Positions 23,667 through 47,159 of a stretch of 64,000 nt of DNA are shown here, piece after piece. Every line of letters starts with the position of its first letter. The stretch's first letter is position 1. Origin of the DNA: a phage; assembly GCA_014435945.1 (NCBI GenBank), contig GCA_014435945.1_4088.1. One strand, given 5' to 3'. Made by a program: the position numbers and the translations under genes. Below the pieces are notes generated by a model. The model was given only the letters and a program-made list of their open reading frames with translations. It did not search any database and was not told where the DNA came from.

Positions 23667-23897
23667 ATGACAGCACGAATTGTTTTACTTAACGCTGGAA
23701 GTACTACACAACTCCTTAACGCCGTGCATTATGATATTGAAACGAGCGTTAATCTTATCAGTACTGTAGTACTATTGGACACTGGAAAGGTCGCCAATGA
23801 TAAAGCGATTGCAGGTATACTAACTGATCTCAAGCCTGGTAGCAGTACGCCAATAACGTTAAATGGCAAAGTGTTTAATATTTTACTTACTGATTAA
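23667..23897 (+). CDS. hypothetical protein
   Basis: 76 aa; SD AAGGGGA. Confidence 0.55.
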   Translation: MTARIVLLNAGSTTQLLNAVHYDIETSVNLISTVVLLDTGKVANDKAIAGILTDLKPGSSTPITLNGKVFNILLTD

Positions 23898-23903
23898 GTA
23901 CAT

Positions 23904-23930
23904 AGCCCACCTGGTGGGCTTTTTTGTTTT
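23904..23930 (+). terminator. Intrinsic terminator
   Basis: GCCCACC-tg-GTGGGC followed by TTTTTTGTTTTT. Confidence 0.65.
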
Positions 23931-24011
23931 TGTAGTATCGTAGTACTGAGATACTTTAAAAATAGTTTTAAAAAAGTAGTTGACATTACCACAAAAAGGC
24001 GTAGAATGTAT

Positions 24012-24090
24012 TACATCAAGACGGGGAGCACTAAGTAGACCGCCAGTAAGTCGAACGAAAAACTGGACACGTCGAGAAAACTTTGATACA
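24012..24090 (+). ncRNA. Conserved structured leader element, copy 2
   Basis: caagacggggagcactaagtag...cgaaaaact; between promoter and gene 24131. Confidence 0.35.
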
Positions 24091-24130
24091 CTAATAAACG
24101 TAAACTAAACTTTAATTGAGGATTTATAAA

Positions 24131-24613
24131 ATGGCTAATGTAAAATCATTCATCAAAGCACTGGTAGCAAATGAAACTAACGTCGCGGCAGAGATCCTGG
24201 CTGAACTGGATAACGATACCATGAAAGCGGTACGCAATAATTTTAACATCGCGTACAGTACTGCGAAAGAACTACAAGCAAATAAAGCGGCAGAAATTGA
24301 AGCGGCAAAGGCGGCCCGTGAAGCAGAACTACAAGCAACAATCGAAAGTATTCAGGCGGCAGTAGTTGGATTGGATCTGGAAGTAGTTACAGAGATGGCA
24401 CAAAAAGCCCTGGCGGTTAAGTATGGGGAAGACAAGCCAGAAGTAAAAGCCAAAAAATGGATTCAGGAACGCGTAGCGGTAGTACTGGACAACGGGGAAG
24501 AATATCTGATTCCGGTGCGTGGTAACTGCATTGCGGTAGTACTGGATGCGATTAACTCCAGTGGTATGACTCGCGAGGAATGGATCGAAGCTCATCGCAA
24601 AGTTGAAGCATAA
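24131..24613 (+). CDS. hypothetical protein (Ala/Glu-rich, predicted helical)
   Basis: Start moved to ATG 24131 (track start is TTG); SD GAGGA. Confidence 0.58.
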   Translation: MANVKSFIKALVANETNVAAEILAELDNDTMKAVRNNFNIAYSTAKELQANKAAEIEAAKAAREAELQATIESIQAAVVGLDLEVVTEMAQKALAVKYGEDKPEVKAKKWIQERVAVVLDNGEEYLIPVRGNCIAVVLDAINSSGMTREEWIEAHRKVEA

Positions 24614-24634
24614 CAATTAAAGTACTGAATCACT

Positions 24635-24662
24635 AGCCCACCTTAAACGGTGGGCTTTTTTG
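24635..24662 (+). terminator. Intrinsic terminator
   Basis: AGCCCACC-ttaaac-GGTGGGCT followed by TTTTTTG. Confidence 0.65.
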
Positions 24663-24898
24663 TGTTTATCGTTTACCAGCTCCACATCACCGCCTAGAAA
24701 CGATTCTAACGCATTAAACTGATTATCTGATGCATTGCCCTAGCTGGTGGCGTTAAGGTCGTTGTAATGCGATTGAGAGCGTTTAAAGTATTTTGCAAAA
24801 AGTAATAAAAAGTACTTGCACGATTAAGAGATTAGCGTATAATGTTTTACATCGAGAGGGGGAAACGGTTCTCCTTCCAAATCAAAGGAATAAAAACA

Positions 24899-25126
24899 AT
24901 GGCTATTATCATTACTCGCGTATCTGGTACTACTGGCAACGAACAAGTAGTTGCAGTCATTACCAACAAGGAAGGTGCGGAATTGCAAAATGCAATGAAT
25001 ACCTGGGCCGTTAATGAGTTCGGTCAGTGGGCAAGTGTAGCATACATTGAAACCTATCAAGTGCCGTCGATTAGTTTAACTGATTTGGGCGTTGAGCGTA
25101 TCCTTTGCCTGGATGAATTAAATTAA
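24899..25126 (+). CDS. hypothetical protein
   Basis: Start moved to ATG 24899 (MAIIITRVSG). Confidence 0.58.
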   Translation: MAIIITRVSGTTGNEQVVAVITNKEGAELQNAMNTWAVNEFGQWASVAYIETYQVPSISLTDLGVERILCLDELN

Positions 25127-25212
25127 AAAAAGTACTTGCAAAGTAAATCGAATAAAGTATAATACATTACATCAAGGGGAGAAATGGTTCTCCCCACTAC
25201 AAGGAAACTAAA

Positions 25213-25356
25213 ATGAAAACTTGTCAATGTGGTCAGAAATCTATTACGGGTTTAAAGCGGGGCGTTGCTCTTTGCCAGTACCATTATAATTTACAAGTAT
25301 GGGGTAAAGAATGGGCCGACCAGGTGGAAGCAGCAAAGAAAGCAAAAAGTAAGTAA
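25213..25356 (+). CDS. small Cys-containing protein (47 aa)
   Basis: Hand-translated MKTCQCGQKSITGLKRGVALCQYHY...; promoter, hairpin and SD upstream. Confidence 0.45.
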   Translation: MKTCQCGQKSITGLKRGVALCQYHYNLQVWGKEWADQVEAAKKAKSK

Positions 25357-25420
25357 AAATATTATCACAGTACTATTGACATAGTTTGATAGTACTGGCA
25401 TAATAGATTTTATCAAGACA
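25349..25420 (+). repeat. 72-bp promoter cassette, copy 1 (exact duplicate of 25641-25712)
   Basis: gtaagtaaaaatattatcacagtactattgacatagtttgatagtactggcataatagattttatcaagaca. Confidence 0.6.
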
Positions 25421-25435
25421 ACTGAGGAAAATAAA

Positions 25436-25648
25436 ATGGCTATCATCACTAAAATCAAAGTTAACAAATCACTGGTTAAGCTGGAAGAAGTGAAAGAAGG
25501 TTATAAAGTATCTTGGTGCGGCATGTATCGGATATTCACTGATATTGATGACGCAATCAATTATTACAGCGACACGGTTAAAAACTTTGTTCGTGCTGAT
25601 GTGGTTATGGCAGTGGCAACGCACAAAGCAGCGAAAGAAAGTAAGTAA
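25436..25648 (+). CDS. hypothetical protein
   Basis: 70 aa; MAIITKIKV. Confidence 0.58.
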   Translation: MAIITKIKVNKSLVKLEEVKEGYKVSWCGMYRIFTDIDDAINYYSDTVKNFVRADVVMAVATHKAAKESK

Positions 25649-25712
25649 AAATATTATCACAGTACTATTGACATAGTTTGATAGTACTGGCATAATAGAT
25701 TTTATCAAGACA
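25641..25712 (+). repeat. 72-bp promoter cassette, copy 2
   Basis: Identical to 25349-25420; includes last codons (KSK/ESK-stop) of upstream gene. Confidence 0.6.
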
Positions 25713-25737
25713 ACATATTAATTTAAGGAATACAAAA

Positions 25738-26061
25738 ATGGCTAAAACTATCATTAACACCGTTTCCCTGGCTGCAATCCGTGCAATCAATGTTGACGGT
25801 AAACGTTGGACTGATTCATATGGCAATACTTATCATTCTTGTCATGTAAGCGTTGAACTGGATAACGGTTTGAATGATCTGGCGGTTGAATCATTTACTT
25901 ATGGCTATGAAGATGCATATCAACAAACGGCGTTATCTCTCTTAAAGGAATCAGTAGACGGGCTTAATACTGATGAAACCTCCCTTACTCGTGTGTGCAA
26001 TGATCTTAATATCCCGTTGCATTGTACTGTACAGAATGTTAAACGCAAAAAAGATCTTTAA
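25738..26061 (+). CDS. hypothetical protein; paralog of 32566-32889
   Basis: Shared RWTDS[YH]GNTYHSC, FTYGY and C-term VKRKKD. Confidence 0.6.
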   Translation: MAKTIINTVSLAAIRAINVDGKRWTDSYGNTYHSCHVSVELDNGLNDLAVESFTYGYEDAYQQTALSLLKESVDGLNTDETSLTRVCNDLNIPLHCTVQNVKRKKDL

Positions 26062-26141
26062 TTAGCTTTACTTTATGCAGATACTTTGATATAGTGTCTG
26101 CATAGGGGAAAGAAATTAAATTAACTTAAGAGGATCGTATA

Positions 26142-26411
26142 ATGAAAAATATCAGTACTTTAATCGATGCAGGTACTCATGTTCGTCGGTCTATGGTTGC
26201 AACCAGTACTACAAAACAAGTAGCGAGCGGTTATCTTGTATTTGTGCACGATGGTAAACTCCTGGAACGTTCAATCAATTTTGATGTTAAAAACAATTGC
26301 CGTTTTATTATCTTTAAGCGTGAGCAATATAAAATTGATTTACCAGCAAAGCCCATTAGTGGGGCGTACAACGTGCAATCATTGTTTGAACGTCAACCAT
26401 ACACCTATTAA
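26142..26411 (+). CDS. hypothetical protein
   Basis: 89 aa; SD AAGAGGA. Confidence 0.55.
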   Translation: MKNISTLIDAGTHVRRSMVATSTTKQVASGYLVFVHDGKLLERSINFDVKNNCRFIIFKREQYKIDLPAKPISGAYNVQSLFERQPYTY

Positions 26412-26462
26412 TCAAAACATCGTTAGCGGTCGATTCAGGCCGCTTATATTGGGGATTATACC

Positions 26463-26735
26463 ATGAACGTTAATCAAGTACTGAATGAGATCGAAAGCAT
26501 CATTAAACCGATGAAGCGTACTGATGCTATGTTAACACCGGAAGAATGCCGCCTTTATGAGCGTTACAGCGTCGAACAAGTCCAGGCAATGGCTATGGCT
26601 ACCCCAGCCGTTAAACCGCCTGAGAATGCGTTACAGGACGTTACAGGGGATTATATCATCAATCCAGTACTAGGGAAGATGGCTGCAATCACCGAAGATC
26701 AACAAGACTACTTAAGCCAGTACTTAAAAGGTTAA
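26463..26735 (+). CDS. hypothetical protein
   Basis: 90 aa. Confidence 0.55.
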   Translation: MNVNQVLNEIESIIKPMKRTDAMLTPEECRLYERYSVEQVQAMAMATPAVKPPENALQDVTGDYIINPVLGKMAAITEDQQDYLSQYLKG

Positions 26736-26740
26736 TTAAT

Positions 26741-26950
26741 ATGCTTACTGTACAGGATAAGATCGACATCTTAAAGGTTAATATGTATGTGATTGATGCC
26801 GTACCTGGTAAAGTATTTGCATACGATGACACTACTGTAAGCGATTTCTACTATAGCCAGGCCGTGGGGGATCTTTCTGTACAGTCGGTTATTGAAAACG
26901 TAGTTAATGCAGCGTATGAGCATTTACTTTCAAATAGTACTTGCAATTAG
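26741..26950 (+). CDS. hypothetical protein
   Basis: 69 aa; close-coupled to upstream gene. Confidence 0.5.
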   Translation: MLTVQDKIDILKVNMYVIDAVPGKVFAYDDTTVSDFYYSQAVGDLSVQSVIENVVNAAYEHLLSNSTCN

Positions 26951-27019
26951 TTTTTAAACGCGTATAATGTTTTACATGAAGGGGAGAAATGATTCTCCCC
27001 ACTAATTAAGGAATATGAA

Positions 27020-27166
27020 ATGAAAGCATCAAAAAAGAGTACTAACAAGAAAGCACGTTCAACCTTAGATGGGGTATTCCCTTTACGTTTTGTTGATGAA
27101 GTAGTTTCCTACCCGCCGGGCCTTACTCCTGAGATGGTAGAAAGTTTGCGTAAATCTAAAAAATAG
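27020..27166 (+). CDS. small basic protein (48 aa)
   Basis: Hand-translated MKASKKSTNKKARS...; promoter and hairpin upstream. Confidence 0.45.
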   Translation: MKASKKSTNKKARSTLDGVFPLRFVDEVVSYPPGLTPEMVESLRKSKK

Positions 27167-27248
27167 TACTTGCAATTAGTTTTTAGTACTGTATAATAGT
27201 TTACATGAAGGGGAAAACGTTCCCCTTACACCTAACGAGGAAAGTATA

Positions 27249-27500
27249 ATGGAAACAATTTTAATCAAAGACACTGCTACTACTGTAACTTATGATAATG
27301 ATTGCATTATCCCAGGGACTGAGTACGGCGAACGTGTACCCGTTCAAGTAGAGATTGATACCACATACATCGACAAGGCTGACCAGTGTATCACTATTGT
27401 AATTGGTGAATATCGTTTTCTACCAGAAGAGATCCAAAAATGGCAGAATATGATTGACCGTGCGAAATTAGTCGCACAAAGTTTAAAATACAAAGTTTAA
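27249..27500 (+). CDS. hypothetical protein
   Basis: 83 aa; SD AACGAGGAAAG. Confidence 0.58.
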   Translation: METILIKDTATTVTYDNDCIIPGTEYGERVPVQVEIDTTYIDKADQCITIVIGEYRFLPEEIQKWQNMIDRAKLVAQSLKYKV

Positions 27501-27586
27501 AATAATACTTGCAATTAGTTTTTAAACGCGTATAATGTTTTACATGAAGGGGAGAAATGATTCTCCCCAATAACAGGAGAAACAAA

Positions 27587-27739
27587 ATGAAACAATACAA
27601 CGCTCGGTTTGATGTTACTATCGGTAACGGCAAAGGTCAATTCTCTTTCAGTACTCGCAAAAGTTATACAGAAAACTTCCTGCGTAATTGTGCACTGACC
27701 GCCGCACAAATTAAACATTACTTTCAGGCTAAAAAATGA
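27587..27739 (+). CDS. hypothetical protein
   Basis: Start moved to ATG 27587 (MKQYNARF). Confidence 0.55.
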   Translation: MKQYNARFDVTIGNGKGQFSFSTRKSYTENFLRNCALTAAQIKHYFQAKK

Positions 27740-27825
27740 AATCATTAGCTTATTACAGTTCGGCCCTGGTCGGTGCATTGATCGCGGCATTGTTAGTAAC
27801 CTATCTATTCTTTATGGTGATTTAA
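27736..27825 (+). CDS. small hydrophobic peptide (29 aa, single predicted TM helix)
   Basis: ATGA overlap with upstream stop; MKSLAYYSSALVGALIAALLVTYLFFMVI. Confidence 0.4.
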   Translation: MKSLAYYSSALVGALIAALLVTYLFFMVI

Positions 27826-27969
27826 ATGAATCCAACAGGCTTAAATTATAAAAGTTGTTCGGCGTTTACGAAAGCAAATAAAGCGAATGCACGTAAAGCG
27901 AAAGTACAGGAATACATCAAGCAAGGCATGACGCGAAAGGCGGCGATTCTAAAAGCTAAAAATAAATGA
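27826..27969 (+). CDS. small basic protein (47 aa)
   Basis: Starts directly after upstream stop; Lys/Ala-rich. Confidence 0.4.
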   Translation: MNPTGLNYKSCSAFTKANKANARKAKVQEYIKQGMTRKAAILKAKNK

Positions 27970-28000
27970 AAAAAGTGGTTGACTCCGGTCAGCCATTTTG
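27970..28000 (+). terminator. Terminator-like hairpin (A-run, GTGGTTGAC..GTCAGCCAT, T-run) at start of repeat module
   Basis: Same module at 31633, 34899 and 37657. Confidence 0.45.
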
Positions 28001-28179
28001 CTATTATATATTCATTGAGAGATAGCTCACTAGCCCACAGGGTGCATAAGTGTATCTATTATATAAGTATTGAGTACTGAAAACTATTTTTAAAAAGTAC
28101 TTGCAAACTATCTCAATAAGCGTATAATGTTTTACATCGCAAGGGGAAATGGTTTCCCCTGGTAATAAGGAAACGAATC

Positions 28180-37682: not shown

Positions 37683-37886
37683 GCTATTATATACGCATAG
37701 ACAAAAACTAGCCCACAGGGTGCATAAGTGTATCCAAAATATATAGTTAATAACGGTGAGTAACTATCTGCTGGTGGAGTGAAAACTATTAATAAAAAAA
37801 AGTATTGACAAAGTATATCAGTACTGCAATAATGTATCTCGTAGGGCGGCAATGGTGCGACGGCCCACAAAGTTAGGAGATTCAAA

Positions 37887-38219
37887 ATGACTACTTCAAT
37901 CGCTATCGTTAAAGCTTTCATCCGTACTAATGTTTCCTCTGTATTCATCGACGGCCTCGACCGTAACGTAGAATACTCAATCATTATCGCACAAACGGCA
38001 AACGGTTCTCGGTACATCCTGAATGATAGTGAAGCAAATCACTACTACTTCACTAAAGCCACTGGCTTTAAACGCATCGATGCTGATGTAGTATACGCTA
38101 AGATGAATAAGCTGGTAGACAAGATTAACGCGAAAGGTACTATCGATTTACAGTACTGGACCGAAACCGATCCAGAATATGGATCTCACCGCTACCTGAA
38201 TCCAGGTATTAAAATGTAA
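37887..38219 (+). CDS. hypothetical protein
   Basis: 110 aa; SD TTAGGAGA. Confidence 0.6.
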   Translation: MTTSIAIVKAFIRTNVSSVFIDGLDRNVEYSIIIAQTANGSRYILNDSEANHYYFTKATGFKRIDADVVYAKMNKLVDKINAKGTIDLQYWTETDPEYGSHRYLNPGIKM

Positions 38220-38308
38220 AAAGTACTTGCATAGTACTTAGATTCATGTATAATGTTTTACATAGAGAGGGGGAAATGGTTCTCCCTCCTAAATTAAGGA
38301 GTTTTATC

Positions 38309-38710
38309 ATGACCTTCTCAATCACTTCCTTCGCTGACGTTTTAGTACTGGCTCGGACTTTTGGTAAAGATGCACTGGAGTACGCTGTAAGTAATGGCAC
38401 TATCCAACCGGAACAGTGCCGCATCATTGGAAACTGCAAACGTTGGGCGGTATCCAATACTATTGCACTGGAAAACTTCAACGATGGCAACAATGAATAT
38501 TCTGTTGATGTAGTATTCGAAGCCGTAGACCTGGGCGGTATCTATAACACTAACCTGAATGATGTGCGTATCGTTCGCACTGGCTTCGGTGCTTATGATG
38601 TATCTATCCGTGAAGCTATGGACAAGGGATACATTAGCAAGGACTTACTTGCTCACATCATGCAGCTATGGACGGAACGTAACGAAGCACGTACTATCTT
38701 AGGGCTGTAA
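38309..38710 (+). CDS. hypothetical protein
   Basis: Start moved to ATG 38309 (MTFSITSFADV). Confidence 0.58.
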   Translation: MTFSITSFADVLVLARTFGKDALEYAVSNGTIQPEQCRIIGNCKRWAVSNTIALENFNDGNNEYSVDVVFEAVDLGGIYNTNLNDVRIVRTGFGAYDVSIREAMDKGYISKDLLAHIMQLWTERNEARTILGL

Positions 38711-38734
38711 GCAATACACATCACCAAACATCAT

Positions 38735-38754
38735 AGGCCGCTCTCTAGCGGCCT
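38735..38754 (+). terminator. Hairpin AGGCCGC-tctcta-GCGGCCT (terminator-like, no T-run)
   Basis: Perfect 7-bp inverted repeat after stop. Confidence 0.35.
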
Positions 38755-38778
38755 TAACTATATCAGGAGTACATACAC

Positions 38779-38988
38779 ATGATCTATACAGTATACAACG
38801 TTCTAGGCACTATTGCAGGCGTACATGATAACGTCGATAGTGCTATGCGTACAGTACTGCAACAGGTTCCACTAAAGCCTAAGACCATTAAGCAGATGAC
38901 AGCACGACTAACCAGGGCGACGGCTGGCGTGGAAGTATGGCAGGACTATGGGGATACACAGATAATCGTAAGCGTAACGAAGGATTAA
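38779..38988 (+). CDS. hypothetical protein
   Basis: 69 aa; SD CAGGAG. Confidence 0.55.
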   Translation: MIYTVYNVLGTIAGVHDNVDSAMRTVLQQVPLKPKTIKQMTARLTRATAGVEVWQDYGDTQIIVSVTKD

Positions 38989-39019
38989 TGCGTAAAGGGA
39001 TCTAGTACTGATTCAGAAA

Positions 39020-39083
39020 AAAGTCAAGGCGTTTTTAAAATTATGCGTTAAAAAAATGCATAGGTAATCCCTTGACTTTTTTG
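39020..39083 (+). terminator. Long inverted repeat AAAAAAGTCAAGG ... CCTTGACTTTTTT (13-bp arms, ~38-nt spacer)
   Basis: Perfect complementarity; sits between early region and family B operon. Confidence 0.4.
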
Positions 39084-39179
39084 AAATAAAAGGGATTGGA
39101 CTATGGCAAAATGCGTAGGGGGCTAAAGGGCGGGTAACCTTAGCGACTTCGATAAAGGGGTATTACTTATAAAATGTTA

Positions 39180-39207
39180 TTGACTTTTTATATGAATCGT
39201 ATATTAT
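39180..39207 (+). promoter_or_regulatory. sigma70-like promoter for family B operon (TTGACT..TATATTAT)
   Basis: Immediately upstream of first family B gene; AT-rich. Confidence 0.45.
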
Positions 39208-39237
39208 TGGATTGATATTATTTTTAATGGAGTCCCT

Positions 39238-39435
39238 ATGCGTATTTTAACTCAAGAAGAGCACAACCACACACTCATATCCAACATGGCATATATCCTA
39301 CATATGTCACATATCCGTGGTATTGCATATAAGCGTGAATTGGTTATGAAACTTTTCATAGGAACTAACTATCAAGAAAAGTATATCGAACTATACTTAC
39401 AAGAATTACGAAGGGACATAAAAGGTAGACTATGA
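39238..39435 (+). CDS. small protein, paralog family B ([LF]GTNYQE motif)
   Basis: 65 aa; FIGTNYQEKYIELYLQELRRDIKGRL. Confidence 0.65.
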   Translation: MRILTQEEHNHTLISNMAYILHMSHIRGIAYKRELVMKLFIGTNYQEKYIELYLQELRRDIKGRL

Positions 39436-39632
39436 AAATGCGTATTTTAAATAAAGAAGATTATCAAGAACTGTTACGTAAAAACATGGTAAAGATTTAT
39501 AACACAGACACAAACTTAGAACGAATTGAGTTATACCTTTTGATTACATTGGGAACAAGCTATCAGGGAAGATGGGTGATTCAATATATGGATGCATTGA
39601 AAAATGAAATATTATCCACGAGGAAACAATGA
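39432..39632 (+). CDS. small protein, paralog family B
   Basis: ATGA overlap; LGTSYQGRWVIQYMDAL. Confidence 0.65.
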   Translation: MKMRILNKEDYQELLRKNMVKIYNTDTNLERIELYLLITLGTSYQGRWVIQYMDALKNEILSTRKQ

Positions 39633-39838
39633 AAACTATAACACGAACCCAATCATACGGTCTTATCTTGAGATACATGGACTTAATGTTGGATATCAGA
39701 AAAGACCTTCCTAAAACTGCAATTGAAGTTGCAAGAGCAGAGATCCGCATGTTGGCTGTACTGAACACAAACCATCAGGAAGAGTATGTTGACGATTGGA
39801 TTCGATTTTTAATAGAAGATATTAAGAGGAAACTATGA
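39629..39838 (+). CDS. small protein, paralog family B
   Basis: Overlap; VLNTNHQEEYVDDWIRFL. Confidence 0.65.
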   Translation: MKTITRTQSYGLILRYMDLMLDIRKDLPKTAIEVARAEIRMLAVLNTNHQEEYVDDWIRFLIEDIKRKL

Positions 39839-40047
39839 TTTTTTTAACACCAGAAGAATATAAGATACGTTTTGTTTCTGTCCAGAATAAAATCTTAATT
39901 ATATACAATTCAAATGCAGACCTTAACTTATCAAGGGTATTAGAAAAAGATTTACTTATGGGTGCATTTTTGGATACAGACTTTCAGGTGTATTATGTAG
40001 GGGAATACTTAATTGCACTCCAGAATTACATTAAGAGTAAACTATGA
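39835..40047 (+). CDS. small protein, paralog family B
   Basis: Overlap; FLDTDFQVYYVGEYLIAL. Confidence 0.65.
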   Translation: MIFLTPEEYKIRFVSVQNKILIIYNSNADLNLSRVLEKDLLMGAFLDTDFQVYYVGEYLIALQNYIKSKL

Positions 40048-40256
40048 ATAGCATTAACTCAAATCTATATACCGAACGCGTCGCTGCCAGACAACTTGAA
40101 ATTCTCATAGTATATGAAGAGACTGATGATTTAAACTTAGCATTAGTATTGGAAAATGATATACTATTGGGTGCATTCCTCGGCACAGACTATCAGGAGC
40201 ACTTCTTGAATGAGTATATAATTGCACTCCAGAAATACATTAAGAGCAAACTATGA
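40044..40256 (+). CDS. small protein, paralog family B
   Basis: Close paralog of 39835 (shared C-term ALQ.YIKSKL). Confidence 0.65.
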   Translation: MNSINSNLYTERVAARQLEILIVYEETDDLNLALVLENDILLGAFLGTDYQEHFLNEYIIALQKYIKSKL

Positions 40257-40471
40257 AACATTTAAGTAATTACGAGAAGAATAAAATTATCGTTGCTGCA
40301 ATAAACAAATATTTTACACTTCCTCACACAGAAGGTTTATGTGTAAGGGAACACAGGATAAACACCACCGATATACGCATGATGGCTGTACTGGGGACGA
40401 ACTTTCAGGAAGAGTATGTTGTTGCACACATAGTTGCCCTCACTGATTTAATAAGGGACAAATGCAAATGA
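40253..40471 (+). CDS. small protein, paralog family B
   Basis: VLGTNFQEEYVVAHIVAL. Confidence 0.65.
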   Translation: MKHLSNYEKNKIIVAAINKYFTLPHTEGLCVREHRINTTDIRMMAVLGTNFQEEYVVAHIVALTDLIRDKCK

Positions 40472-40686
40472 AAGACATAAACACTCAAGAATATCTTAAA
40501 CGATTAGAACAAGGGAAGAACTTTAGACTTCAAGTTTACGATGATGAATCACTAACATCCAATGAAAAGTATGTTATACTAACAGACTCAACATTAATAC
40601 CATTTGTAGGAACAAACTATCAGGAGGTTATGGTAGACAACCACATCACGGCCTTAAAATGTCATGTCAGGGATTTAGGTAAATGA
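40462..40686 (+). CDS. small protein, paralog family B
   Basis: FVGTNYQEVMVDNHITAL. Confidence 0.65.
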   Translation: MQMKDINTQEYLKRLEQGKNFRLQVYDDESLTSNEKYVILTDSTLIPFVGTNYQEVMVDNHITALKCHVRDLGK

Positions 40687-40940
40687 AACACTTAACTGAT
40701 GATGAATTTGAAACTATAATTCGTAAACTAACCCCCATCACAAGGATAGTCTACGGTGACCCCAGCCTTACATGGAACCAAATGCGAGCTAAAGTTAATG
40801 AGCTATGGTTGCTGTACTTTATGGGGACTCAATATCAAGATAAGTTTTGCACAGAATATATCGAACAATTAACGAATGTTATACAGGATAAACTAGATGA
40901 TTATTTGCTCACAAAACATGAAGACTTTATCAGGAGTTGA
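40683..40940 (+). CDS. small protein, paralog family B
   Basis: FMGTQYQDKFCTEYIEQL. Confidence 0.65.
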   Translation: MKHLTDDEFETIIRKLTPITRIVYGDPSLTWNQMRAKVNELWLLYFMGTQYQDKFCTEYIEQLTNVIQDKLDDYLLTKHEDFIRS

Positions 40941-41169
40941 GTATCAAACTGCCCTATTCTCTTTAATCCATACCCTTAGAAAAAACAATGCCTTACATGG
41001 TGCACCTGAAGTGGATGTTATCAACGGTGAACTTTATCTTATGAAATTCATTGGAACAAACTATCAAGATCTGTTCATTCAACGATACTTATCAGCATTA
41101 AGAAACCAAATCCAATATAAAACCATCAAGGCCAAAAAAGAATGGAATAAACAATGCGACACAGACTAA
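40918..41169 (+). CDS. small protein, paralog family B
   Basis: Start moved to ATG 40918; FIGTNYQDLFIQRYLSAL. Confidence 0.6.
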   Translation: MKTLSGVEYQTALFSLIHTLRKNNALHGAPEVDVINGELYLMKFIGTNYQDLFIQRYLSALRNQIQYKTIKAKKEWNKQCDTD

Positions 41170-41405
41170 ATCACAAAATGTATTGTAAACTATTACAGAC
41201 ACTGGCACAGAAACACTATGACACGGTATCTGAAATATTACCCTATGATATCATGCGTTTACTTCACTGTGAGGCCGAGATGCTTGTACTGATGACAGGC
41301 ACAGATAAAAAAGCAATTGCCAAATCAATAGATATGTTCATCGAAGCACAATGTCAACACATTAGAACCGAGATATGGAGGCGAGAGAATGATAACCCTA
41401 AATGA
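41154..41405 (+). CDS. small protein, paralog family B (divergent)
   Basis: LMTGTDKKAIAKSIDMFIE. Confidence 0.55.
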   Translation: MRHRLNHKMYCKLLQTLAQKHYDTVSEILPYDIMRLLHCEAEMLVLMTGTDKKAIAKSIDMFIEAQCQHIRTEIWRRENDNPK

Positions 41406-41604
41406 GTATCAGTATCATTGGAGGTTACAAGCTATAAGAAGGAAAGTTGTTAGTATTTCTTTAGACAAGTCTATTGCACAAGAGGACAAATGTGTTATAA
41501 TAGCTGAAATGAAGTTGGGTGCTTTCGTAGGAACAAACTATCAAAACATCTACACTGACGTATTGTTAAGTGCCTTACGTAACAAGGTGATATCAAAAGA
41601 ATGA
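41389..41604 (+). CDS. small protein, paralog family B
   Basis: FVGTNYQNIYTDVLLSAL. Confidence 0.65.
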   Translation: MITLNEYQYHWRLQAIRRKVVSISLDKSIAQEDKCVIIAEMKLGAFVGTNYQNIYTDVLLSALRNKVISKE

Positions 41605-41819
41605 GAAAATTACAAGGCTTTGAATACATCAGACTCCTGAAAACATGTGCCAACAGAAGAGTAAAGATTCAATCTGATAAGAGCATCCCTGCCAACCTAA
41701 AACATGCAATGATAGCTGAACTCTATGCAGGGGCACTCATAGGGACAAACTATCAACAAATGTATATAGACATGTGGGTTGATGCATTAGTCAAGGAGAT
41801 CCAAAGTAAATGCAAATGA
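41601..41819 (+). CDS. small protein, paralog family B
   Basis: LIGTNYQQMYIDMWVDAL. Confidence 0.65.
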   Translation: MRKLQGFEYIRLLKTCANRRVKIQSDKSIPANLKHAMIAELYAGALIGTNYQQMYIDMWVDALVKEIQSKCK

Positions 41820-42028
41820 TTAATTTAAGTAAAGATGAATATTATGATCGTCTTGCAAAAACTTATCCAGCACGTAACGCCGTTTATAATAGTAACATTA
41901 TTGAACGCTCAAAGAAGTTGATTGTAGTGAATGAGATTAAGATGCTTTCAGTCTTAGGAACAAACTATCAAGAGAATGCTGTACTGTTGTTAATTGATGC
42001 CCTCCAGAGAGAGATACAAAGTAAATGA
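41810..42028 (+). CDS. small protein, paralog family B
   Basis: VLGTNYQENAVLLLIDAL. Confidence 0.65.
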   Translation: MQMINLSKDEYYDRLAKTYPARNAVYNSNIIERSKKLIVVNEIKMLSVLGTNYQENAVLLLIDALQREIQSK

Positions 42029-42261
42029 TTAATTTATCTTTCCATGAATATCAAAAACGTTTAAATGCATCAAGGGATATAAGGATTCAAATCTTCAATA
42101 ACAAAAAATTGAAACCTGACACCAGAAGAATCAAAATAATAGAAGCAGAGTTATGCAACTTCCTGGGGACGAACCATCAGGAAGGTAAGATAAAAAACTA
42201 TCTTAGAGAACTAATGAATTGTATCGAAAATAAATGCGATGCTTTGGAGAATAAAAAATGA
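42025..42261 (+). CDS. small protein, paralog family B
   Basis: FLGTNHQEGKIKNYLREL. Confidence 0.65.
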   Translation: MINLSFHEYQKRLNASRDIRIQIFNNKKLKPDTRRIKIIEAELCNFLGTNHQEGKIKNYLRELMNCIENKCDALENKK

Positions 42262-42515
42262 TCAATTTAAGTAAAGATGAATATACCGAGCGTATGACAA
42301 AAATCTCACCTAAACGTAATGCAATCTATTACAGCCAAGAAATTCCACACAGTAAGAAGATGATTATGTATCGTGAGTTAAAGATGGGTATGTTCTTAGG
42401 AACAAACTATCAAGAACCAGAAGTAAATCGCTTAATAAATGAATTACTCATGGAAATCAGAGGTAAGCTGTACTTTCATCAAATGACCCAGCCACTGAGG
42501 TGTACTAAGAAATGA
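42258..42515 (+). CDS. small protein, paralog family B
   Basis: FLGTNYQEPEVNRLINEL. Confidence 0.65.
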   Translation: MINLSKDEYTERMTKISPKRNAIYYSQEIPHSKKMIMYRELKMGMFLGTNYQEPEVNRLINELLMEIRGKLYFHQMTQPLRCTKK

Positions 42516-42727
42516 TCAACATCACATTGCAAGAAAGATTCATCCGAATCAACTATGCAATTACCAAATTAGATGCTACTATAGACAACCAAAGTTTACC
42601 GTTCAAAACAAGAATGATATTAGAGTGCGAAGCCAAGTTAGGTGTACTGTTAGGGACGCAACACCAACAACGATATGTGGAAATCTGGATTGATCTTTTA
42701 ACCCAAAATGCACATGAGAGAATGTAA
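42512..42727 (+). CDS. small protein, paralog family B
   Basis: LLGTQHQQRYVEIWIDLL. Confidence 0.65.
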   Translation: MINITLQERFIRINYAITKLDATIDNQSLPFKTRMILECEAKLGVLLGTQHQQRYVEIWIDLLTQNAHERM

Positions 42728-42958
42728 ATGCAAAAGGAAATGATATACTTAACACATGATGAATTTCAAGAGAAGATGTTAAAAGCCAATAACATTACTC
42801 TTAAGTTCGTTCCAAATCAATCAATATATGAAATGTCTGCGAATGTATTGTTTCAGAAGCTACCATACGTTCTTGGAACTGATAAACAAGAATTTATGGT
42901 TCAAAATATGATTGAGCATCTTGCAATGAGTATTATGGAAAAAGTAAATGCAAAATGA
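42728..42958 (+). CDS. small protein, paralog family B
   Basis: VLGTDKQEFMVQNMIEHL. Confidence 0.65.
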   Translation: MQKEMIYLTHDEFQEKMLKANNITLKFVPNQSIYEMSANVLFQKLPYVLGTDKQEFMVQNMIEHLAMSIMEKVNAK

Positions 42959-43190
42959 AATGAAATACTTAACATATAATGAATACGTCGAGAGATTAGT
43001 TAGTGCCAAGAGATATGCCAATCAACTTCCTAATGATCCAAACCAAACCCCAGAGGAAAAGAATGCGGAAGCTCTATTCCAAGCACTACCATACCTTCTT
43101 GGAACTGATAGGCAGGAGTATCACGTTGAACGTATAATTAAATCTCTTAAAATCACTATTAAGGAAAAAGTAAATGCAAAAGCAAAATGA
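42948..43190 (+). CDS. small protein, paralog family B
   Basis: LLGTDRQEYHVERIIKSL. Confidence 0.65.
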   Translation: MQNEMKYLTYNEYVERLVSAKRYANQLPNDPNQTPEEKNAEALFQALPYLLGTDRQEYHVERIIKSLKITIKEKVNAKAK

Positions 43191-43437
43191 AATGAAATAC
43201 TTAACAGACGATGAGTTAAAAGAACGATTAATTAAATCCAGAAAACTTACAAATCAACTTCCAATCGACACAAACAAGTCACATGCCGAAAGGAGTGCAG
43301 AAGTTTTATACATTCAACTCCTGTACTTTCTTGGAACTGACAGACAAGAGTATTACATTGAAAGTATGCTTCGATATCTTAAATTCTCTATAAAGGAAAA
43401 GGTACATGCTCAAGAATTTAAAAATCCTAACAGTTAA
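43174..43437 (+). CDS. small protein, paralog family B
   Basis: FLGTDRQEYYIESMLRYL; start may be 43192. Confidence 0.6.
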   Translation: MQKQNEMKYLTDDELKERLIKSRKLTNQLPIDTNKSHAERSAEVLYIQLLYFLGTDRQEYYIESMLRYLKFSIKEKVHAQEFKNPNS

Positions 43438-43648
43438 TGAATATCATAAGATTGTAATGAAAACTAATAGTGAAATTTCTAAAAAATCAAACCCAAAGTA
43501 CATACTGGAACACACATTCGAAGAACGTCAATTAGCTCTAGTTGAAGCAAAACTTCTTGCACTCCTAGGAACAAACTATCAGGAAGAATACATCAGAAAA
43601 CTAATATACCTTTTAACTAAACACATCAGGAAAAGAAAAAAAGCATGA
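43406..43648 (+). CDS. small protein, paralog family B
   Basis: LLGTNYQEEYIRKLIYLL. Confidence 0.62.
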   Translation: MLKNLKILTVNEYHKIVMKTNSEISKKSNPKYILEHTFEERQLALVEAKLLALLGTNYQEEYIRKLIYLLTKHIRKRKKA

Positions 43649-43875
43649 AACACTTGACAGATGATGAACATGGGCTTATAGTAATGGATGTAATCAACAT
43701 CGAATACAAAAAGTTGATACGCTACCGTTGTTATGAAGATAAGCAACTCGTTCTAGCAGAACAGAAGTTGTTTCGACTCTTAAACACAAACTTCCAAGCA
43801 CAATACGAAGAATCGTATTTGTACCTACTGTCGAGGAAAGCAAAAAGAGATTATGAAAATTTTAAACCACAGTGA
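43645..43875 (+). CDS. small protein, paralog family B
   Basis: LLNTNFQAQYEESYLYLL. Confidence 0.62.
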   Translation: MKHLTDDEHGLIVMDVINIEYKKLIRYRCYEDKQLVLAEQKLFRLLNTNFQAQYEESYLYLLSRKAKRDYENFKPQ

Positions 43876-44068
43876 ACAAACAGAATTGTTAATCTTTAAT
43901 ACAAGTAAATTCTTAAACATAACATTGTCTGATATAGATGAGGATGAAAAAGAGTTACTTAGAGCAGATTTAAGAGTTCTTTTATATGTTGGAACTAACT
44001 TCCAAGAGCAATTCGTTGAGGACTACATCGATGAACTTAAAGAATCTGTACTGAGAACATGCAAATGA
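43853..44068 (+). CDS. small protein, paralog family B
   Basis: YVGTNFQEQFVEDYIDEL. Confidence 0.65.
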   Translation: MKILNHSEQTELLIFNTSKFLNITLSDIDEDEKELLRADLRVLLYVGTNFQEQFVEDYIDELKESVLRTCK

Positions 44069-44292
44069 AAATCCTTTCACCAAGTGAATACCACGAACTA
44101 TTAAGTAGTTTAATTCTAAAATTGTATATAGCAAAGACCACAGATTTACCTGATGAAGAAAAAAATATTCTAATGAGTGAAATCTATGTTAATTCTACCC
44201 TAGGGACTAACTATCAAGAATGTAATATTAATGATTACATCAATGAACTAAAAAGGTTTATCCAATGCAAATGCGAATCATTACCGAAGTAG
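44059..44292 (+). CDS. small protein, paralog family B
   Basis: TLGTNYQECNINDYINEL. Confidence 0.65.
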   Translation: MQMKILSPSEYHELLSSLILKLYIAKTTDLPDEEKNILMSEIYVNSTLGTNYQECNINDYINELKRFIQCKCESLPK

Positions 44293-44507
44293 AATACCTA
44301 ACAATCATAAATGGACTGTTTTCGAAGTTATTTGCCATTAACACATCAAAACTTCCAGATACTGATAAAATTATTAAGTTAAATGAAATCTACGTTCAAG
44401 CTACTCTAGGAACAAACTATCAAGAAGCCAATGTGTATAATTACATTAATACACTCAAAAGGGTAATACAATTAAAATGCACAGACAGCACACACACAAA
44501 CCCCTAG
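44265..44507 (+). CDS. small protein, paralog family B
   Basis: TLGTNYQEANVYNYINTL. Confidence 0.65.
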   Translation: MQMRIITEVEYLTIINGLFSKLFAINTSKLPDTDKIIKLNEIYVQATLGTNYQEANVYNYINTLKRVIQLKCTDSTHTNP

Positions 44508-44707
44508 GAACAGCAGAATACATTGAACTAATGGCTGCAAACTTCTCATCCTTTAAGAAACTGATGCAAGAATCAAATAATGATTTAGAATATCATATCA
44601 AAAGTTCAGATTTAAGATTACTACTCACTCTAGGAACAGACAGTCAGTACAAATTCGTACAGGAGCATATTAGAGCACTTTTAAATGGCATCAGGGATAA
44701 ACTATGA
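44477..44707 (+). CDS. small protein, paralog family B
   Basis: TLGTDSQYKFVQEHIRAL. Confidence 0.62.
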   Translation: MHRQHTHKPLGTAEYIELMAANFSSFKKLMQESNNDLEYHIKSSDLRLLLTLGTDSQYKFVQEHIRALLNGIRDKL

Positions 44708-44919
44708 AGGAAATATCAAATCAAGAGTACTTGGCACTGTTCAGAAAAAATAGTCAAGAATTTCTGAATATTGATACAAGGACTGATATAAGTGAACTTC
44801 AGAAAAATCTTTTGCGTTCAGAGATGATAGTACTGACACTCTTAGGAACACAGCATCAAGAGAGAACTGTTAATTCACACATAGGTATTCTTATACAGAT
44901 TGTACAGGAAAAGATATGA
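44704..44919 (+). CDS. small protein, paralog family B
   Basis: LLGTQHQERTVNSHIGIL. Confidence 0.65.
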   Translation: MKEISNQEYLALFRKNSQEFLNIDTRTDISELQKNLLRSEMIVLTLLGTQHQERTVNSHIGILIQIVQEKI

Positions 44920-45137
44920 GAATCATAACACAACAAGATATTCTTAAGTTCACAAGGGTTCATGCATCTGAATTTGATGCTATATTATCAAAAAGTTACA
45001 ATGACCCTTATACAGAAGATGTACTCTACAATGAATTATGGGTGTATATACTTTTAGGTACAGATCATCAAGAGCAAGCCGTACAGAAGTATTTGACAGC
45101 TTTACGTGATGCTACAGCTAATGGAGTACATGTTTAA
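44916..45137 (+). CDS. small protein, paralog family B
   Basis: LLGTDHQEQAVQKYLTAL. Confidence 0.65.
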   Translation: MRIITQQDILKFTRVHASEFDAILSKSYNDPYTEDVLYNELWVYILLGTDHQEQAVQKYLTALRDATANGVHV

Positions 45138-45138
45138 T

Positions 45139-45390
45139 ATGAAAGTACTGACAGAATTAGAAATGTATCATAGATTTAACAAGTACTATCATTTACTTAA
45201 ACCTATACAGAGGATTAAGTGTCCCTTTGTAGTGAAACAGGTATTAATTTATGAGCATAAGTTATTTGTATCATTAGGTACGAATGAACAAGAGTATTAT
45301 TTGAAGTTGTACTTAATTACATTAATAGATTTAATTCACTATAAAACCACACAATCCAAACAAGCTAATAAAGAGAAATATGAAAACTAA
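45139..45390 (+). CDS. small protein, paralog family B
   Basis: Start moved to ATG 45139; SLGTNEQEYYLKLYLITL. Confidence 0.6.
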   Translation: MKVLTELEMYHRFNKYYHLLKPIQRIKCPFVVKQVLIYEHKLFVSLGTNEQEYYLKLYLITLIDLIHYKTTQSKQANKEKYEN

Positions 45391-45718
45391 TATACAACTC
45401 AAGGTTTATAAATCATTTGCAAGTACATACATCAAATGCTATACATGTAACTATGTAATGGACTACAAAGGTAAGCCATTTACACTTACTTACGATAATA
45501 CAAGAGGTTTTTATATATCTTTTGCTGATTACAAATATAACATATACGAACACATTGACATTGAAGATTTAAGTACTTTATCACCAGAGGAATACTTTCA
45601 GGAATCGTTAGTATGGGATTTGGAGTTTCCTATGCCATTAGTACATAAAATGGTAGTCCAAATGAAAGAAGCTAAACCGGAGTTTAACGGTTATGAAGAA
45701 TACACAATTGAGTATTAA
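45380..45718 (+). CDS. paralog family C protein (EExFQxSL motif)
   Basis: 112 aa; LSPEEYFQESLVWDLEFPMP; embedded between family B genes. Confidence 0.62.
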   Translation: MKTNIQLKVYKSFASTYIKCYTCNYVMDYKGKPFTLTYDNTRGFYISFADYKYNIYEHIDIEDLSTLSPEEYFQESLVWDLEFPMPLVHKMVVQMKEAKPEFNGYEEYTIEY

Positions 45719-45934
45719 ATGAAAAGATTATCATACGAAGATTACACCAATCTTATCAGGACTTTACAACCAGAAATTAAAAGAATTAATTCTCTTCCTA
45801 TATCTAATGAAGAATGTTCAGTACTGAAAGATGAGTTAATCTTAAAACACACAGTAGGAACAAACTATCAAGCAGATAGTGTTCGATATTTAATTTGGGG
45901 GTTGATGTGTCAAATAAAGTCCAGACAAGCTTGA
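45719..45934 (+). CDS. small protein, paralog family B
   Basis: TVGTNYQADSVRYLIWGL. Confidence 0.62.
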   Translation: MKRLSYEDYTNLIRTLQPEIKRINSLPISNEECSVLKDELILKHTVGTNYQADSVRYLIWGLMCQIKSRQA

Positions 45935-45959
45935 CAGTACTCTTCATTACTGCTATAGT
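45931..45959 (+). promoter_or_regulatory. sigma70-like promoter (TTGACA-N17-TATAGT)
   Basis: Upstream of 45990 ORF. Confidence 0.5.
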
Positions 45960-46907: not shown

Positions 46908-47159
46908 ATGTACAAAAAAATAAACCGTTATTTGTATGCATCAAAGTACAGGGATTTTTGTTTACGAGGGGGAGAGGAAGATTTTGCTCTGAGGTTATCG
47001 GAATTTAATATGTTATTTTATCTTGGGTCAAAAGAACAAGAAGATACAGTACAGAAATTTCTCAATCATCTTGTACAAAAAATTAATATGCAAATTTTGA
47101 TGCTTAAGTTACAGGATGAGATAAATGAATATGAATCCAGAAATAGTTCAGGATCTTAA
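46908..47159 (+). CDS. small protein, family B-like (embedded in family C region)
   Basis: FYLGSKEQEDTVQKFLNHL. Confidence 0.55.
   Translation: MYKKINRYLYASKYRDFCLRGGEEDFALRLSEFNMLFYLGSKEQEDTVQKFLNHLVQKINMQILMLKLQDEINEYESRNSSGS

Follow-up and report, generated by a model that had tools for sequence, protein, structure and literature searches.

Several described systems offer parallels to long arrays of small paralogous genes at viral genome ends. The MGF110, MGF360 and MGF505 families of ASFV and the terminal host-range families of poxviruses are made up of tandem paralogs that adjoin terminal repeats; they vary between strains while their flanks are conserved, their products are non-virion proteins, and they have been shown to act in host range or immune evasion. 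Known phage anti-defense loci, such as those encoding anti-CRISPR or Ocr/ArdA proteins, are collections of unrelated genes. In PA5oct, from a related clade, the genes of the direct terminal repeat (DTR) are early and transcription depends on the host RNA polymerase. Bacillus phage G displays a lineage-specific expansion of about 35 zinc-ribbon proteins (Iyer et al. 2021; PMC7824862). Finally, Hua et al. (2017, mBio; PMC5646251) noted a tandem array in phage 121Q, so the array considered here was already known from related phages, although only its existence had been reported.

The locus described here lies in a 64-kb window (the whole stretch of DNA analyzed) from an Asteriusvirus jumbo coliphage with 98% identity to Turkey3, and it represents the same family and the same array as in the sister phage 121Q. 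Like phage G, this is a jumbo phage in which a single small domain occurs in tens of copies; unlike the zinc ribbons, the domain is all-helical, lacks Cys/His metal ligands or a DNA-binding signature, and belongs to another phage lineage. As with the ASFV and poxvirus families, the array adjoins a terminal repeat, varies in copy number and content between conserved flanks and is undetected in virions, but it shows no homology to them, its organization as a coupled operon is a bacterial feature, and any role in host range or evasion is putative. The early or pre-early blocks of T5-like phages and PA5oct likewise place small genes at the DTR under host-type TTGAC/TATAAT promoters, although these are mostly unrelated singletons with their own promoters, whereas the paralogs of the array form a single long coupled operon just outside the DTR. 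In common with anti-defense loci, the array yields small, probably early products whose presence varies and which are confined to a narrow group of phages; in contrast to these loci, they form a family of 29 paralogs, which has no sequence or fold match and, unlike DNA mimics, is not uniformly acidic.

Between positions 39238 and 45934 the window contains 30 consecutive plus-strand ORFs of 65 to 112 aa (Table 1). A hidden Markov model (HMM) built from the array ORFs recovers 29 of these as members (E 1e-17 to 2e-27), in keeping with the preliminary description, made from the sequence alone, which had counted about 29 paralogs. The remaining ORF matches phrog_13866, which corresponds to what that description had called "family C," and the array is hence not composed of a single family throughout. 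Just three further ORFs matched in the rest of the window, at 46908-47156, 59728-55 and 59921-60124, all weaker and downstream, which agrees with the three additional copies originally reported. The family matches PHROG 4148 (phrog_4148), annotated as being of unknown function, with all eight array members tested and the outlier at 59921 aligning over about 70 of the 74 profile positions (E 1e-12 to 4e-26). The 29 members are packed into 6.7 kb at a regular spacing of about 220 nt; all of their ORFs are intact and have collinear orthologs in PBECO4, G17 and 121Q, except for B30, which is absent from these phages and whose closest Turkey3 counterpart is just 79% identical.

Table 1. Coordinates of the array and associated features in the 64-kb window (B, family member; ORF, open reading frame list; HMM, family HMM; PHROG, PHROG search)
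Feature	Position	Strand	Description	Basis
DTR	17312..39140	+	21.8 kb	Alignment to mapped fEgEco12 termini
Inverted repeat	39017..39082	+	Perfect, 13 nt; arms 39017-39029 and 39070-39082; inside DTR	
G-rich box	39113..39140	+	GCGTAGGGGGCTAAAGGGCGGGTAACCT; ends at physical genome terminus (DTR boundary)	
Candidate sigma-70-type promoter	39180..39207	+	TTGACT-16-TATTAT; feeding array	Sequence scan, five-phage alignment
Shine-Dalgarno of B1 (first gene)	39228..39231	+	GGAG	Sequence
B1	39238..39435	+	65 aa	ORF, HMM, PHROG
B2	39432..39632	+	66 aa	ORF, HMM
B3	39629..39838	+	69 aa	ORF, HMM
B4	39835..40047	+	70 aa	ORF, HMM
B5	40044..40256	+	70 aa	ORF, HMM, PHROG
B6	40253..40471	+	72 aa	ORF, HMM
B7	40462..40686	+	74 aa; family-consistent start 40468	ORF, HMM
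B8	40683..40940	+	85 aa	ORF, HMM, PHROG
B9	40897..41169	+	90 aa; family-consistent start 40918	ORF, HMM
B10	41154..41405	+	83 aa; divergent motif TGTDKK	ORF, HMM
B11	41389..41604	+	71 aa	ORF, HMM
B12	41601..41819	+	72 aa	ORF, HMM
B13	41810..42028	+	72 aa; modeled protein, pLDDT 97.4	ORF, HMM
B14	42025..42261	+	78 aa	ORF, HMM
B15	42258..42515	+	85 aa	ORF, HMM, PHROG
B16	42512..42727	+	71 aa	ORF, HMM
B17	42728..42958	+	76 aa	ORF, HMM
B18	42948..43190	+	80 aa	ORF, HMM
B19	43174..43437	+	87 aa; clear JNE01 ortholog	ORF, HMM
B20	43406..43648	+	80 aa	ORF, HMM
B21	43645..43875	+	76 aa	ORF, HMM
B22	43853..44068	+	71 aa	ORF, HMM
B23	44059..44292	+	77 aa	ORF, HMM
B24	44265..44507	+	80 aa	ORF, HMM
B25	44477..44707	+	76 aa; common to JNE01	ORF, HMM
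B26	44704..44919	+	71 aa	ORF, HMM
B27	44916..45137	+	73 aa	ORF, HMM
B28	45106..45390	+	94 aa from GTG 45106; 83 aa from family-consistent ATG 45139	ORF, HMM
Non-member ORF within array	45380..45718	+	112 aa; phrog_13866 ("family C")	PHROG
B30	45719..45934	+	71 aa; last family member of array	ORF, HMM
Promoter-like site at array end	45931..45959	+	TTGACA-17-TATAGT	Same site in 121Q, JNE01
Outlying ORF	about 46908..47159	+	C-terminal half of family HMM only, E 2.5e-5; no PHROG match	HMM, PHROG
Outlying weak family-like ORF	about 59731..59958	+	C-terminal half only, HMM 5e-6; phrog_4148 E 6e-4	HMM, PHROG
Outlying full-length member	about 59936..60127	+	63 aa; HMM 4e-14; phrog_4148 E 1e-17	HMM, PHROG

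The genes are tightly packed, as had been described, but not strictly by overlaps of 4 to 40 nt or abutting ends: with the longest ORFs the overlaps reach 44 nt, while with family-consistent starts ATGA overlaps make up 15 of the 28 junctions, the others lying at −10 to −23 or +1 to +12 nt. The mean energy of Shine-Dalgarno pairing ahead of the starts is −4.85 kcal/mol, compared with −1.41 for other ATGs of the region (p = 2e-11). Thus, the array combines the features of a coupled operon, namely, a common strand, start/stop overlaps and Shine-Dalgarno sites inside the upstream cistron. Taken together, the junctions, HMM matches, pairing energies and structural model support the earlier reading, in which diversified paralogs of one helical fold make up a translationally coupled operon.

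An AlphaFold2 model of B13 is a confidently predicted four-helix domain (pTM 0.83), as anticipated for a small helical protein, and independent BFVD models of relatives have the same fold (TM 0.89). The B13 model has no significant match in the PDB, and sequence and fold searches recovered no similarity to known anti-defense, host-takeover or other characterized proteins. Since the paralogs are just 29 to 30% identical to one another, the duplications are old and have been retained. Of the proposed division into a variable N-terminal and a conserved C-terminal half, the former stands insofar as residues ~12 to 37 are, along with every exposed helix position, the most variable; the N terminus itself, however, is also conserved (M-K-x-L-T-x-x-E-Y). 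T51 is invariant and G50 and Q54 are nearly so, nearly every conserved column is a hydrophobic or motif position, and the remaining columns have an entropy of >3 bits. In the model, a beta-bridge is predicted between residues 4 and 51. The isoelectric points range from 4.4 to 9.9 (median 8.5) and net charges from −7 to +9, with a basic tail in many members. Given this range of pI, a reading of the proteins as acidic, DNA-mimicking decoys finds no support as a trait of the whole family.

The pooled dN/dS of orthologs (versus PBECO4, G17 and 121Q) is 0.37 to 0.42, which is well below 1 and points to coding selection. It is 0.20 at conserved columns, with the lowest values at conserved polar and motif positions, and 0.44 to 0.47 at variable ones. 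Nearly all exposed positions differ between paralogs and are kept between orthologs. Because no column exceeds the synonymous rate and even the variable sites have omega of <1 in the ortholog comparison, an ongoing arms race is not visible at this level; as judged from these alignments, the paralog diversity is old or comes from cassette exchange.

The alignment of the window to the termini of fEgEco12 places the left end of the latter at 17312 and its right end at 39140; therefore, the array begins 98 nt beyond the DTR, just outside its right boundary, as the first operon following the left DTR. The DTR of the window itself contains mostly unrelated small singleton genes, each with its own promoter. 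At the boundary lies a G-rich box, and GGGTAACCTTAGC is unchanged in the five aligned phages (the window, G17, 121Q, JNE01 and Turkey3). The inverted repeat said to precede the operon is real, with perfect arms and a 40-nt loop containing an inner hairpin (fold z = −3.5), but it is inside the DTR and, while conserved in G17, 121Q and Turkey3, is not conserved in JNE01. A link to the DTR end, or to termination of the last DTR gene, is more likely for it than a part in operon control.

The −35 box and the TAnnAT −10 box of the candidate array promoter are conserved in all five phages, and PBECO4 has a different consensus promoter at the equivalent position. This promoter is without the AGTACTGA element found in the DTR promoters. 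The claim that one promoter feeds the array thus has a plausible conserved site behind it, but promoter-like sites also occur within the array, e.g., TTGACA-17-TATAGT at 43654, formed by the B21 codons for HLTDDE...LIV, and a single transcript is hence a candidate only. The further site at the array end is the predicted start of the next transcription unit and the conserved right-hand anchor of the array.

Arrays of this family were found in just 36 Asteriusvirus-type records, with 16 to 29 copies per array across the genus; RaK2 has only about six divergent, scattered copies. At 50% identity the family comprises 88 clusters worldwide among 1.84 billion representatives. In JNE01, the 94% nucleotide identity breaks off precisely where the B1 start codon begins, and the cassette is almost wholly replaced between conserved flanks and promoters, with just two members shared (B19 and B25). 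Tandem paralogy, lineage-restricted expansion and variation of copy number and content between conserved flanks are together characteristic of a lineage-specific multigene family. On metagenome contig P0089, two neighboring members are joined in a natural read-through fusion. None of the 62 proteins of the phAPEC6 virion proteome falls within the 7- to 11-kDa range of the family, though small proteins can escape mass spectrometry.

Several alternatives have to be weighed against these findings. That the array is a noncoding DNA satellite with artifactual ORFs, which the preliminary description had named as the contrary case, is hinted at by the regular spacing alone and has next to no chance of being correct: tandem-repeat analysis of the array (TRF) detected no gene-sized DNA repeat, and conservation is confined to the protein level, with a confident AlphaFold model. 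In light of the ortholog dN/dS, the Shine-Dalgarno enrichment and this lack of a DNA-level repeat, we conclude from genomic comparison that the array genes are real and translated. A subtler possibility is that they serve as genome filler. Hua et al. (PMC5646251) cited the 121Q array in proposing tandem duplication for jumbo genome expansion, and under their "ratchet" duplicates of little individual function would be fixed as a larger capsid tolerates or needs DNA. The omega of the array (~0.4) is indeed higher than that of neighboring DTR genes (0.19 to 0.23), and phages with 16 to 23 copies are viable. Nevertheless, we regard this account as unlikely, in view of the purifying selection seen even at variable surface positions (omega 0.45), the maintenance of 29 ORFs with their start/stop overlaps and Shine-Dalgarno sites at a dS of 0.25 to 0.37, and the retention of such old duplicates.

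Subunits of complexes are typically translated in tight coupling, and the sharing of one scaffold with varied surfaces by all members, along with the natural fusion of two neighbors, might suggest a hetero-oligomeric non-virion structure, such as a scaffold or compartment component with equimolar subunits. An obligate defined complex accords poorly with 16 to 29 copies and the near-complete replacement in JNE01, and no member was detected in phAPEC6 virions; we consider such a structure quite improbable. Equally doubtful is a role as nucleic-acid-binding regulators of phage or host transcription, comparable to the Myb-type or zinc-ribbon expansions of Bacillus phage G, the latter being interpreted as transcription factors or DNA-binding proteins (Iyer et al.; PMC7824862). 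The median pI and the basic tails would be compatible with this, but no helix-turn-helix or other DNA-binding domain was recovered in Pfam, NCBIfam, PDB sequence or fold searches, no basic surface is conserved across the variously charged members, and the codons of the basic tail double as the Shine-Dalgarno site of the next gene. Lastly, the polar site formed by E10, E42, T51, N52, Q54 and E55 might dock on a common host machine while the variable surface recruits targets, making the array a library of adaptors and not of simple inhibitors. Conservation of T51, G50 and Q54 among otherwise ~29% identical paralogs, and an omega that is lowest at these columns, speak for it. Against it, the model offers a structural reading of the same residues, with a predicted helix N-cap and the bridge between residues 4 and 51, and we give the adaptor scenario a similarly small chance.

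With moderate confidence, we instead propose that the array is a lineage-specific multigene family encoding binders built on a single scaffold, made early, kept out of the virion and used for host takeover or anti-defense, its early timing, single transcript, binding activity and role all being putative. The initial suggestion of host-factor binders or anti-defense decoys, once divested of acidic DNA mimicry, agrees with the early-type position and promoter, the absence from the phAPEC6 virion proteome, the variable surface and the turnover. To the known existence of the array, the present analysis adds its structure, its placement with respect to the DTR, the selection acting on it and its turnover. 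Tandem duplication, divergence and gene birth-and-death would have generated 29 genes for one soluble four-helix domain of ~70 residues. Its predicted fold would be held together by the conserved residues, which form the core of hydrophobic side chains, cap a helix near the N terminus (L-T-x-x-E-Y) and make up the L-G-T-N-Y-Q-E junction with its bridge to the N-terminal strand. An active or binding site common to the members, as opposed to a junction of purely structural use, could also account for the invariant T and the nearly invariant Q. The host RNA polymerase probably transcribes the array as one polycistronic early mRNA from the conserved sigma-70-type promoter, and the ATGA overlaps, with Shine-Dalgarno sites within the basic C-terminal codons of the preceding gene, would result in coupled, roughly equimolar translation. 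Most likely, each member would act as a separate binder on the common scaffold, with a target of its own among host or competitor proteins in takeover or counter-defense, and the content of the cassette may thereby be tuned to the hosts met by a lineage.

The region is 98% identical to that of Escherichia phage Turkey3 and 84 to 96% identical to those of other Asteriusvirus jumbo coliphages (PBECO4, 121Q, phAPEC6, G17, Sharanji, and fEgEco12), and in these relatives every annotation of the array-region genes is "hypothetical." The array, which takes up about 2% of the 360-kb phage genome, comprises 30 successive ORFs of 65 to 112 aa with practically no intergenic space. A profile made from them matches 29 at E values of 1e-17 to 2e-27 and, in a six-frame search of the remaining 57 kb, retrieves only three more ORFs, in keeping with the preliminary description of about 29 coupled paralogs and three further family-like copies. 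The run is not made up of paralogs throughout, since the remaining ORF belongs to a different family, phrog_13866 (family C). With the longest ORFs, 13 junctions are 4-nt ATGA overlaps, two are abutments, and the others overlap by 10 to 44 nt; with starts placed at the conserved family methionine, ATGA is found at 15 of the 28 junctions, and the rest lie between -23 and +12 nt. Shine-Dalgarno (SD) pairing before the array starts is enriched, with a mean of -4.85 kcal/mol versus -1.41 for 171 other ATGs of the same region (p = 2e-11). Many of these SD sequences are formed by K/R codons in the C-terminal tail of the preceding gene; hence, we infer that the "basic tail" of the family is at least partly a dual-coding constraint.

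The position of the array can be defined by comparison with fEgEco12, whose termini have been confirmed by experiment and which has a direct terminal repeat (DTR) of 20,993 bp (PMC13070987). In the alignment, its left end falls at window position 17312 and the physical right end (...GGGCGGGTAACCT) at 39140. These alignments indicate that the window holds the whole DTR and that the array, starting 98 nt past it, is the first predicted transcription unit of the unique region. Around 17 to 18 kb, there is a switch in both strand polarity and GC skew. The 98-nt spacer contains a GGAG SD and a candidate promoter, the -35 box and TAnnAT -10 box of which are kept in G17, 121Q, Turkey3, and also the divergent JNE01. 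In PBECO4, an insertion of about 490 nt exactly past the DTR boundary, which includes a promoter and a hypothetical gene of 121 aa, places a different consensus promoter (TTGACA-17-TATGAT) ahead of the array. A second promoter-like site, also present in 121Q and JNE01, is found at the array end. The preliminary description placed a promoter and a 13-bp-arm inverted repeat before the operon; a plausible promoter and the repeat are both present, but the repeat (fold z = -3.5) lies inside the DTR, just ahead of its G-rich terminal box, and is not conserved in JNE01, whose array promoter is kept. We have therefore downgraded it as an operon operator and regard it as part of the DTR end, either as a terminator of the last gene or as a terminus-related element. 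The conserved H-L-T codons of the family (CAC TTG ACA) also yield near-consensus -35 boxes within genes. The site in B21 is conserved in four other phages; it may act as an internal promoter or may simply result from the coding sequence.

Coordinates of the array and associated features (window positions unless a phage is named)
Feature	Position	Strand	Details
Nine tandem paralogs	1074-11931	-	369-398 aa
DTR	17312-39140		~21.8 kb
AGTACTGA motif, examples	30239, 35347, 37818, 39004
Segment 94% identical to JNE01 (nucleotide)	31723-39236		Ends at B1 start codon
Interval with no AGTACTGA	39012-44828		Covers B1 to B25
Candidate array promoter	39180-39207		TTGACT-16-TATTAT
Array	39238-45934	+	B1-B28 and B30, phrog_4148
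Intragenic -35 box site	40692-40720
Intragenic site in B21	43654-43682		TTGACA-17-TATAGT
Family C ORF inside array	45380-45718	+
Promoter-like site at array end	45931-45959		TTGACA-17-TATAGT
Family ORFs outside array	46908-47156, 59728-59955, 59921-60124
Further family C copies	46235-46558, 46568-46879, 54958-56032, 58032-58346, 61270-61957
Small paralog family	56216-58035, 63037-63519		Five copies of 146-162 aa
Small paralog family	48179-50517		Three copies of 168-191 aa
PBECO4 insertion	L002 1920-2500
RaK2 unannotated ORF	L010 12879-13037		53 aa

A short motif, AGTACTGA, often present as the palindrome TCAGTACTGA, occurs 95 times across the window versus 2.5 expected. It is concentrated in the intergenic spacers of the DTR (4.7 per kb), often within the -35/-10 spacer of sigma-70-like promoters, and is also seen at the terminus of fEgEco12 and the junction in RaK2. 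It is absent from B1 through B25 and occurs four times in the final ~1.1 kb of the array. It looks like a common operator of the DTR promoters.

Several lines of evidence bear on whether the array is translated. Tandem Repeats Finder detected no gene-sized DNA repeat in it, and amino acid identity among the paralogs is only about 30%. Against the collinear orthologs of PBECO4, G17, and 121Q, pooled Nei-Gojobori dN/dS values are 0.37, 0.39, and 0.41, respectively (dS of 0.25 to 0.37), splitting into 0.20 for columns conserved among paralogs and 0.44 to 0.47 for variable ones; nonfamily neighbors give 0.19 to 0.23 upstream and 0.35 downstream. The untranslated DNA satellite considered in the preliminary description is excluded by this split, with dN/dS below 1, and by the lack of a gene-sized repeat. 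Taken together, these results argue that the ORFs are protein coding and that selection, though somewhat relaxed, preserves the individual sequence of every paralog. At no site did the nonsynonymous rate exceed the synonymous rate in a per-column test of orthologs, a weak test with three genome pairs only. The diversity thus looks old, or derived from birth-and-death and exchange, rather than from fast point substitution.

An AlphaFold2 model of B13, built from an alignment of 30 paralogs alone, is very confident (pLDDT 97.4, pTM 0.83) and predicts four helices (residues 8 to 17, 19 to 26, 33 to 47, and 54 to 71) with a beta-bridge linking residue 4 to T51. BFVD models of relatives, which were computed independently, superpose on it with a TM score of 0.89. 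The conserved columns are periodic hydrophobics and E10, E42, G50, T51 (invariant), N52, Q54, E55, and K72, with the remaining columns above about 3 bits of entropy. The C-terminal L-G-T-N-Y-Q-E motif is conserved as originally described; the N-terminal half, described as variable, also has a conserved M-K-x-L-T-x-x-E-Y. When established helix-capping rules are applied to the secondary structure of the model, L-T/S-x-x-E-Y fits a classic hydrophobic staple and capping box at the start of helix 1, and N-x-x-E would N-cap helix 4. The simplest reading of the predicted structure is a scaffold that stays fixed while its surface is free to vary, with T51 and Q54 conceivably forming a functional site common to the members. 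Foldseek gave no significant match in the PDB (best E value of 1.3) and family members only in BFVD, and searches of Pfam, NCBIfam, PADLOC, and PDB sequence profiles recovered nothing for the family. Colicin-immunity-like four-helix proteins and T4 AsiA-like anti-sigma factors were dropped as candidates, being absent among the fold hits, and DNA mimicry was rejected on charge (pI of 4.4 to 9.9, net charge of -7 to +9).

The family has a very narrow distribution: clustering at 50% identity places it in 88 clusters out of 1.84 billion representatives, and tblastn found it in 36 phage records. In a 5.8-billion-sequence database, all 92 family clusters lie on Asteriusvirus-like contigs, some labeled E. 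coli, which agrees with reports of persistent jumbo phages in bacterial assemblies. Array copies number 29 in the window, Turkey3, PBECO4, and G17, 23 in 121Q, and 16 to 18 in JNE01, with single members gained and lost between phages; the pan-repertoire is no less than three times the content of one phage. Conservation with JNE01 ends at the first codon of the array, within which only B19 (68% amino acid identity) and B25 (77%) have counterparts, the other JNE01 members being as distant from window members as paralogs are from each other. The array therefore behaves as an exchangeable cassette with conserved promoters on either side. In the Klebsiella phage RaK2, copies near the equivalent junction number only about six and are scattered and divergent, one being the first gene past a long gap; the large tandem array is therefore an expansion specific to Asteriusvirus. 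RaK2 also has, just upstream of ORF362, an unannotated ORF whose match to the family covers the C-terminal half (…LGTPSQEECVQEYINRLI). A fusion of one member to a domain of about 180 aa occurs in phages EC.P1 and UB, whereas RaK2 encodes this domain as a hypothetical gene on its own; in the fusion protein P0079, this C-terminal part matches that gene only and offers no functional clue. P0089, a 154-aa protein from an ENA metagenome contig, joins the orthologs of B20 and B21 by read-through, either as a natural fusion or through a sequencing error.

The post-DTR region consists largely of expanded families. The nine family C members of the window, most of which lie downstream of the array, are of 103 to 125 aa with the motif ELFQESLVxDK...IQK; the AlphaFold model of this family is of moderate confidence (pLDDT 68.7), with a beta-sheet and two helices. 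The minus-strand tandem paralogs at the other end of the window are presumably the ~41-kDa "DNA condensation protein" paralogs found in phAPEC6 virions.

In the related phage PA5oct, transcription depends on the host RNA polymerase, and the DTR genes are transcribed early (PMC7318152); a literature search found no transcriptomic or functional study of an Asteriusvirus. Given this behavior, the host-type promoters, and its position, the array is probably expressed early in infection. The phAPEC6 virion proteome of 62 proteins includes none of family size (7 to 11 kDa). Taking these findings together, we give an even chance to the array being an early, nonvirion multigene family of single-scaffold binders made from one coupled operon, most likely acting in host takeover or counterdefense. 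We rank this binder family above four other explanations. That the array is genome filler in the sense of Hua et al. is unlikely, as its variable sites are under purifying selection and all ORFs and coupling signals are retained. Still less probable is a hetero-oligomeric assembly of the paralogs, which sits poorly with varying copy number and cassette replacement. We similarly doubt that they are nucleic acid-binding regulators, comparable to the zinc-ribbon expansion of phage G, because charge is heterogeneous across members and no DNA-binding domain was found. An adaptor library docking by the conserved polar site is an equally slim prospect.

A more specific form of the binder family, which we put forward tentatively, is a genetically encoded library of single-scaffold inhibitors or adaptors, comparable in a phage to the terminal multigene families that ASFV and poxviruses carry. 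Every paralog of ~70 residues would then neutralize or redirect a host defense or host factor of its own, and host range would be retuned by whole-cassette exchange between the two conserved promoters, an exchange seen in JNE01/Turkey5. If so, the four-helix domain would be a new, minimal, evolvable binding scaffold.

The family is already cataloged (phrog_4148), and the array was mentioned by Hua et al., a mention repeated in the phAPEC6 paper; therefore, its existence is not new, and paralog expansions are known in jumbo phages. What is new here is the confident, unmatched fold with its scaffold-versus-surface pattern, the exact position past the terminal repeat, the selection figures, and the cassette-like turnover. 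Behind the array is a tiny domain that no database can name. Whatever its function, the family should be easy to study experimentally because its fold is compact and very confidently predicted, and the mapped DTR boundary and bracketing promoters provide exact cut points for deleting the array cleanly or swapping the cassette. Should the members prove to be target-specific binders, they would offer dozens of ready probes or inhibitors for E. coli defense or housekeeping proteins, would help account for the differing host ranges of therapeutic Asteriusvirus phages, and would constitute a clear bacterial-virus parallel to the terminal multigene families found in large eukaryotic viruses.
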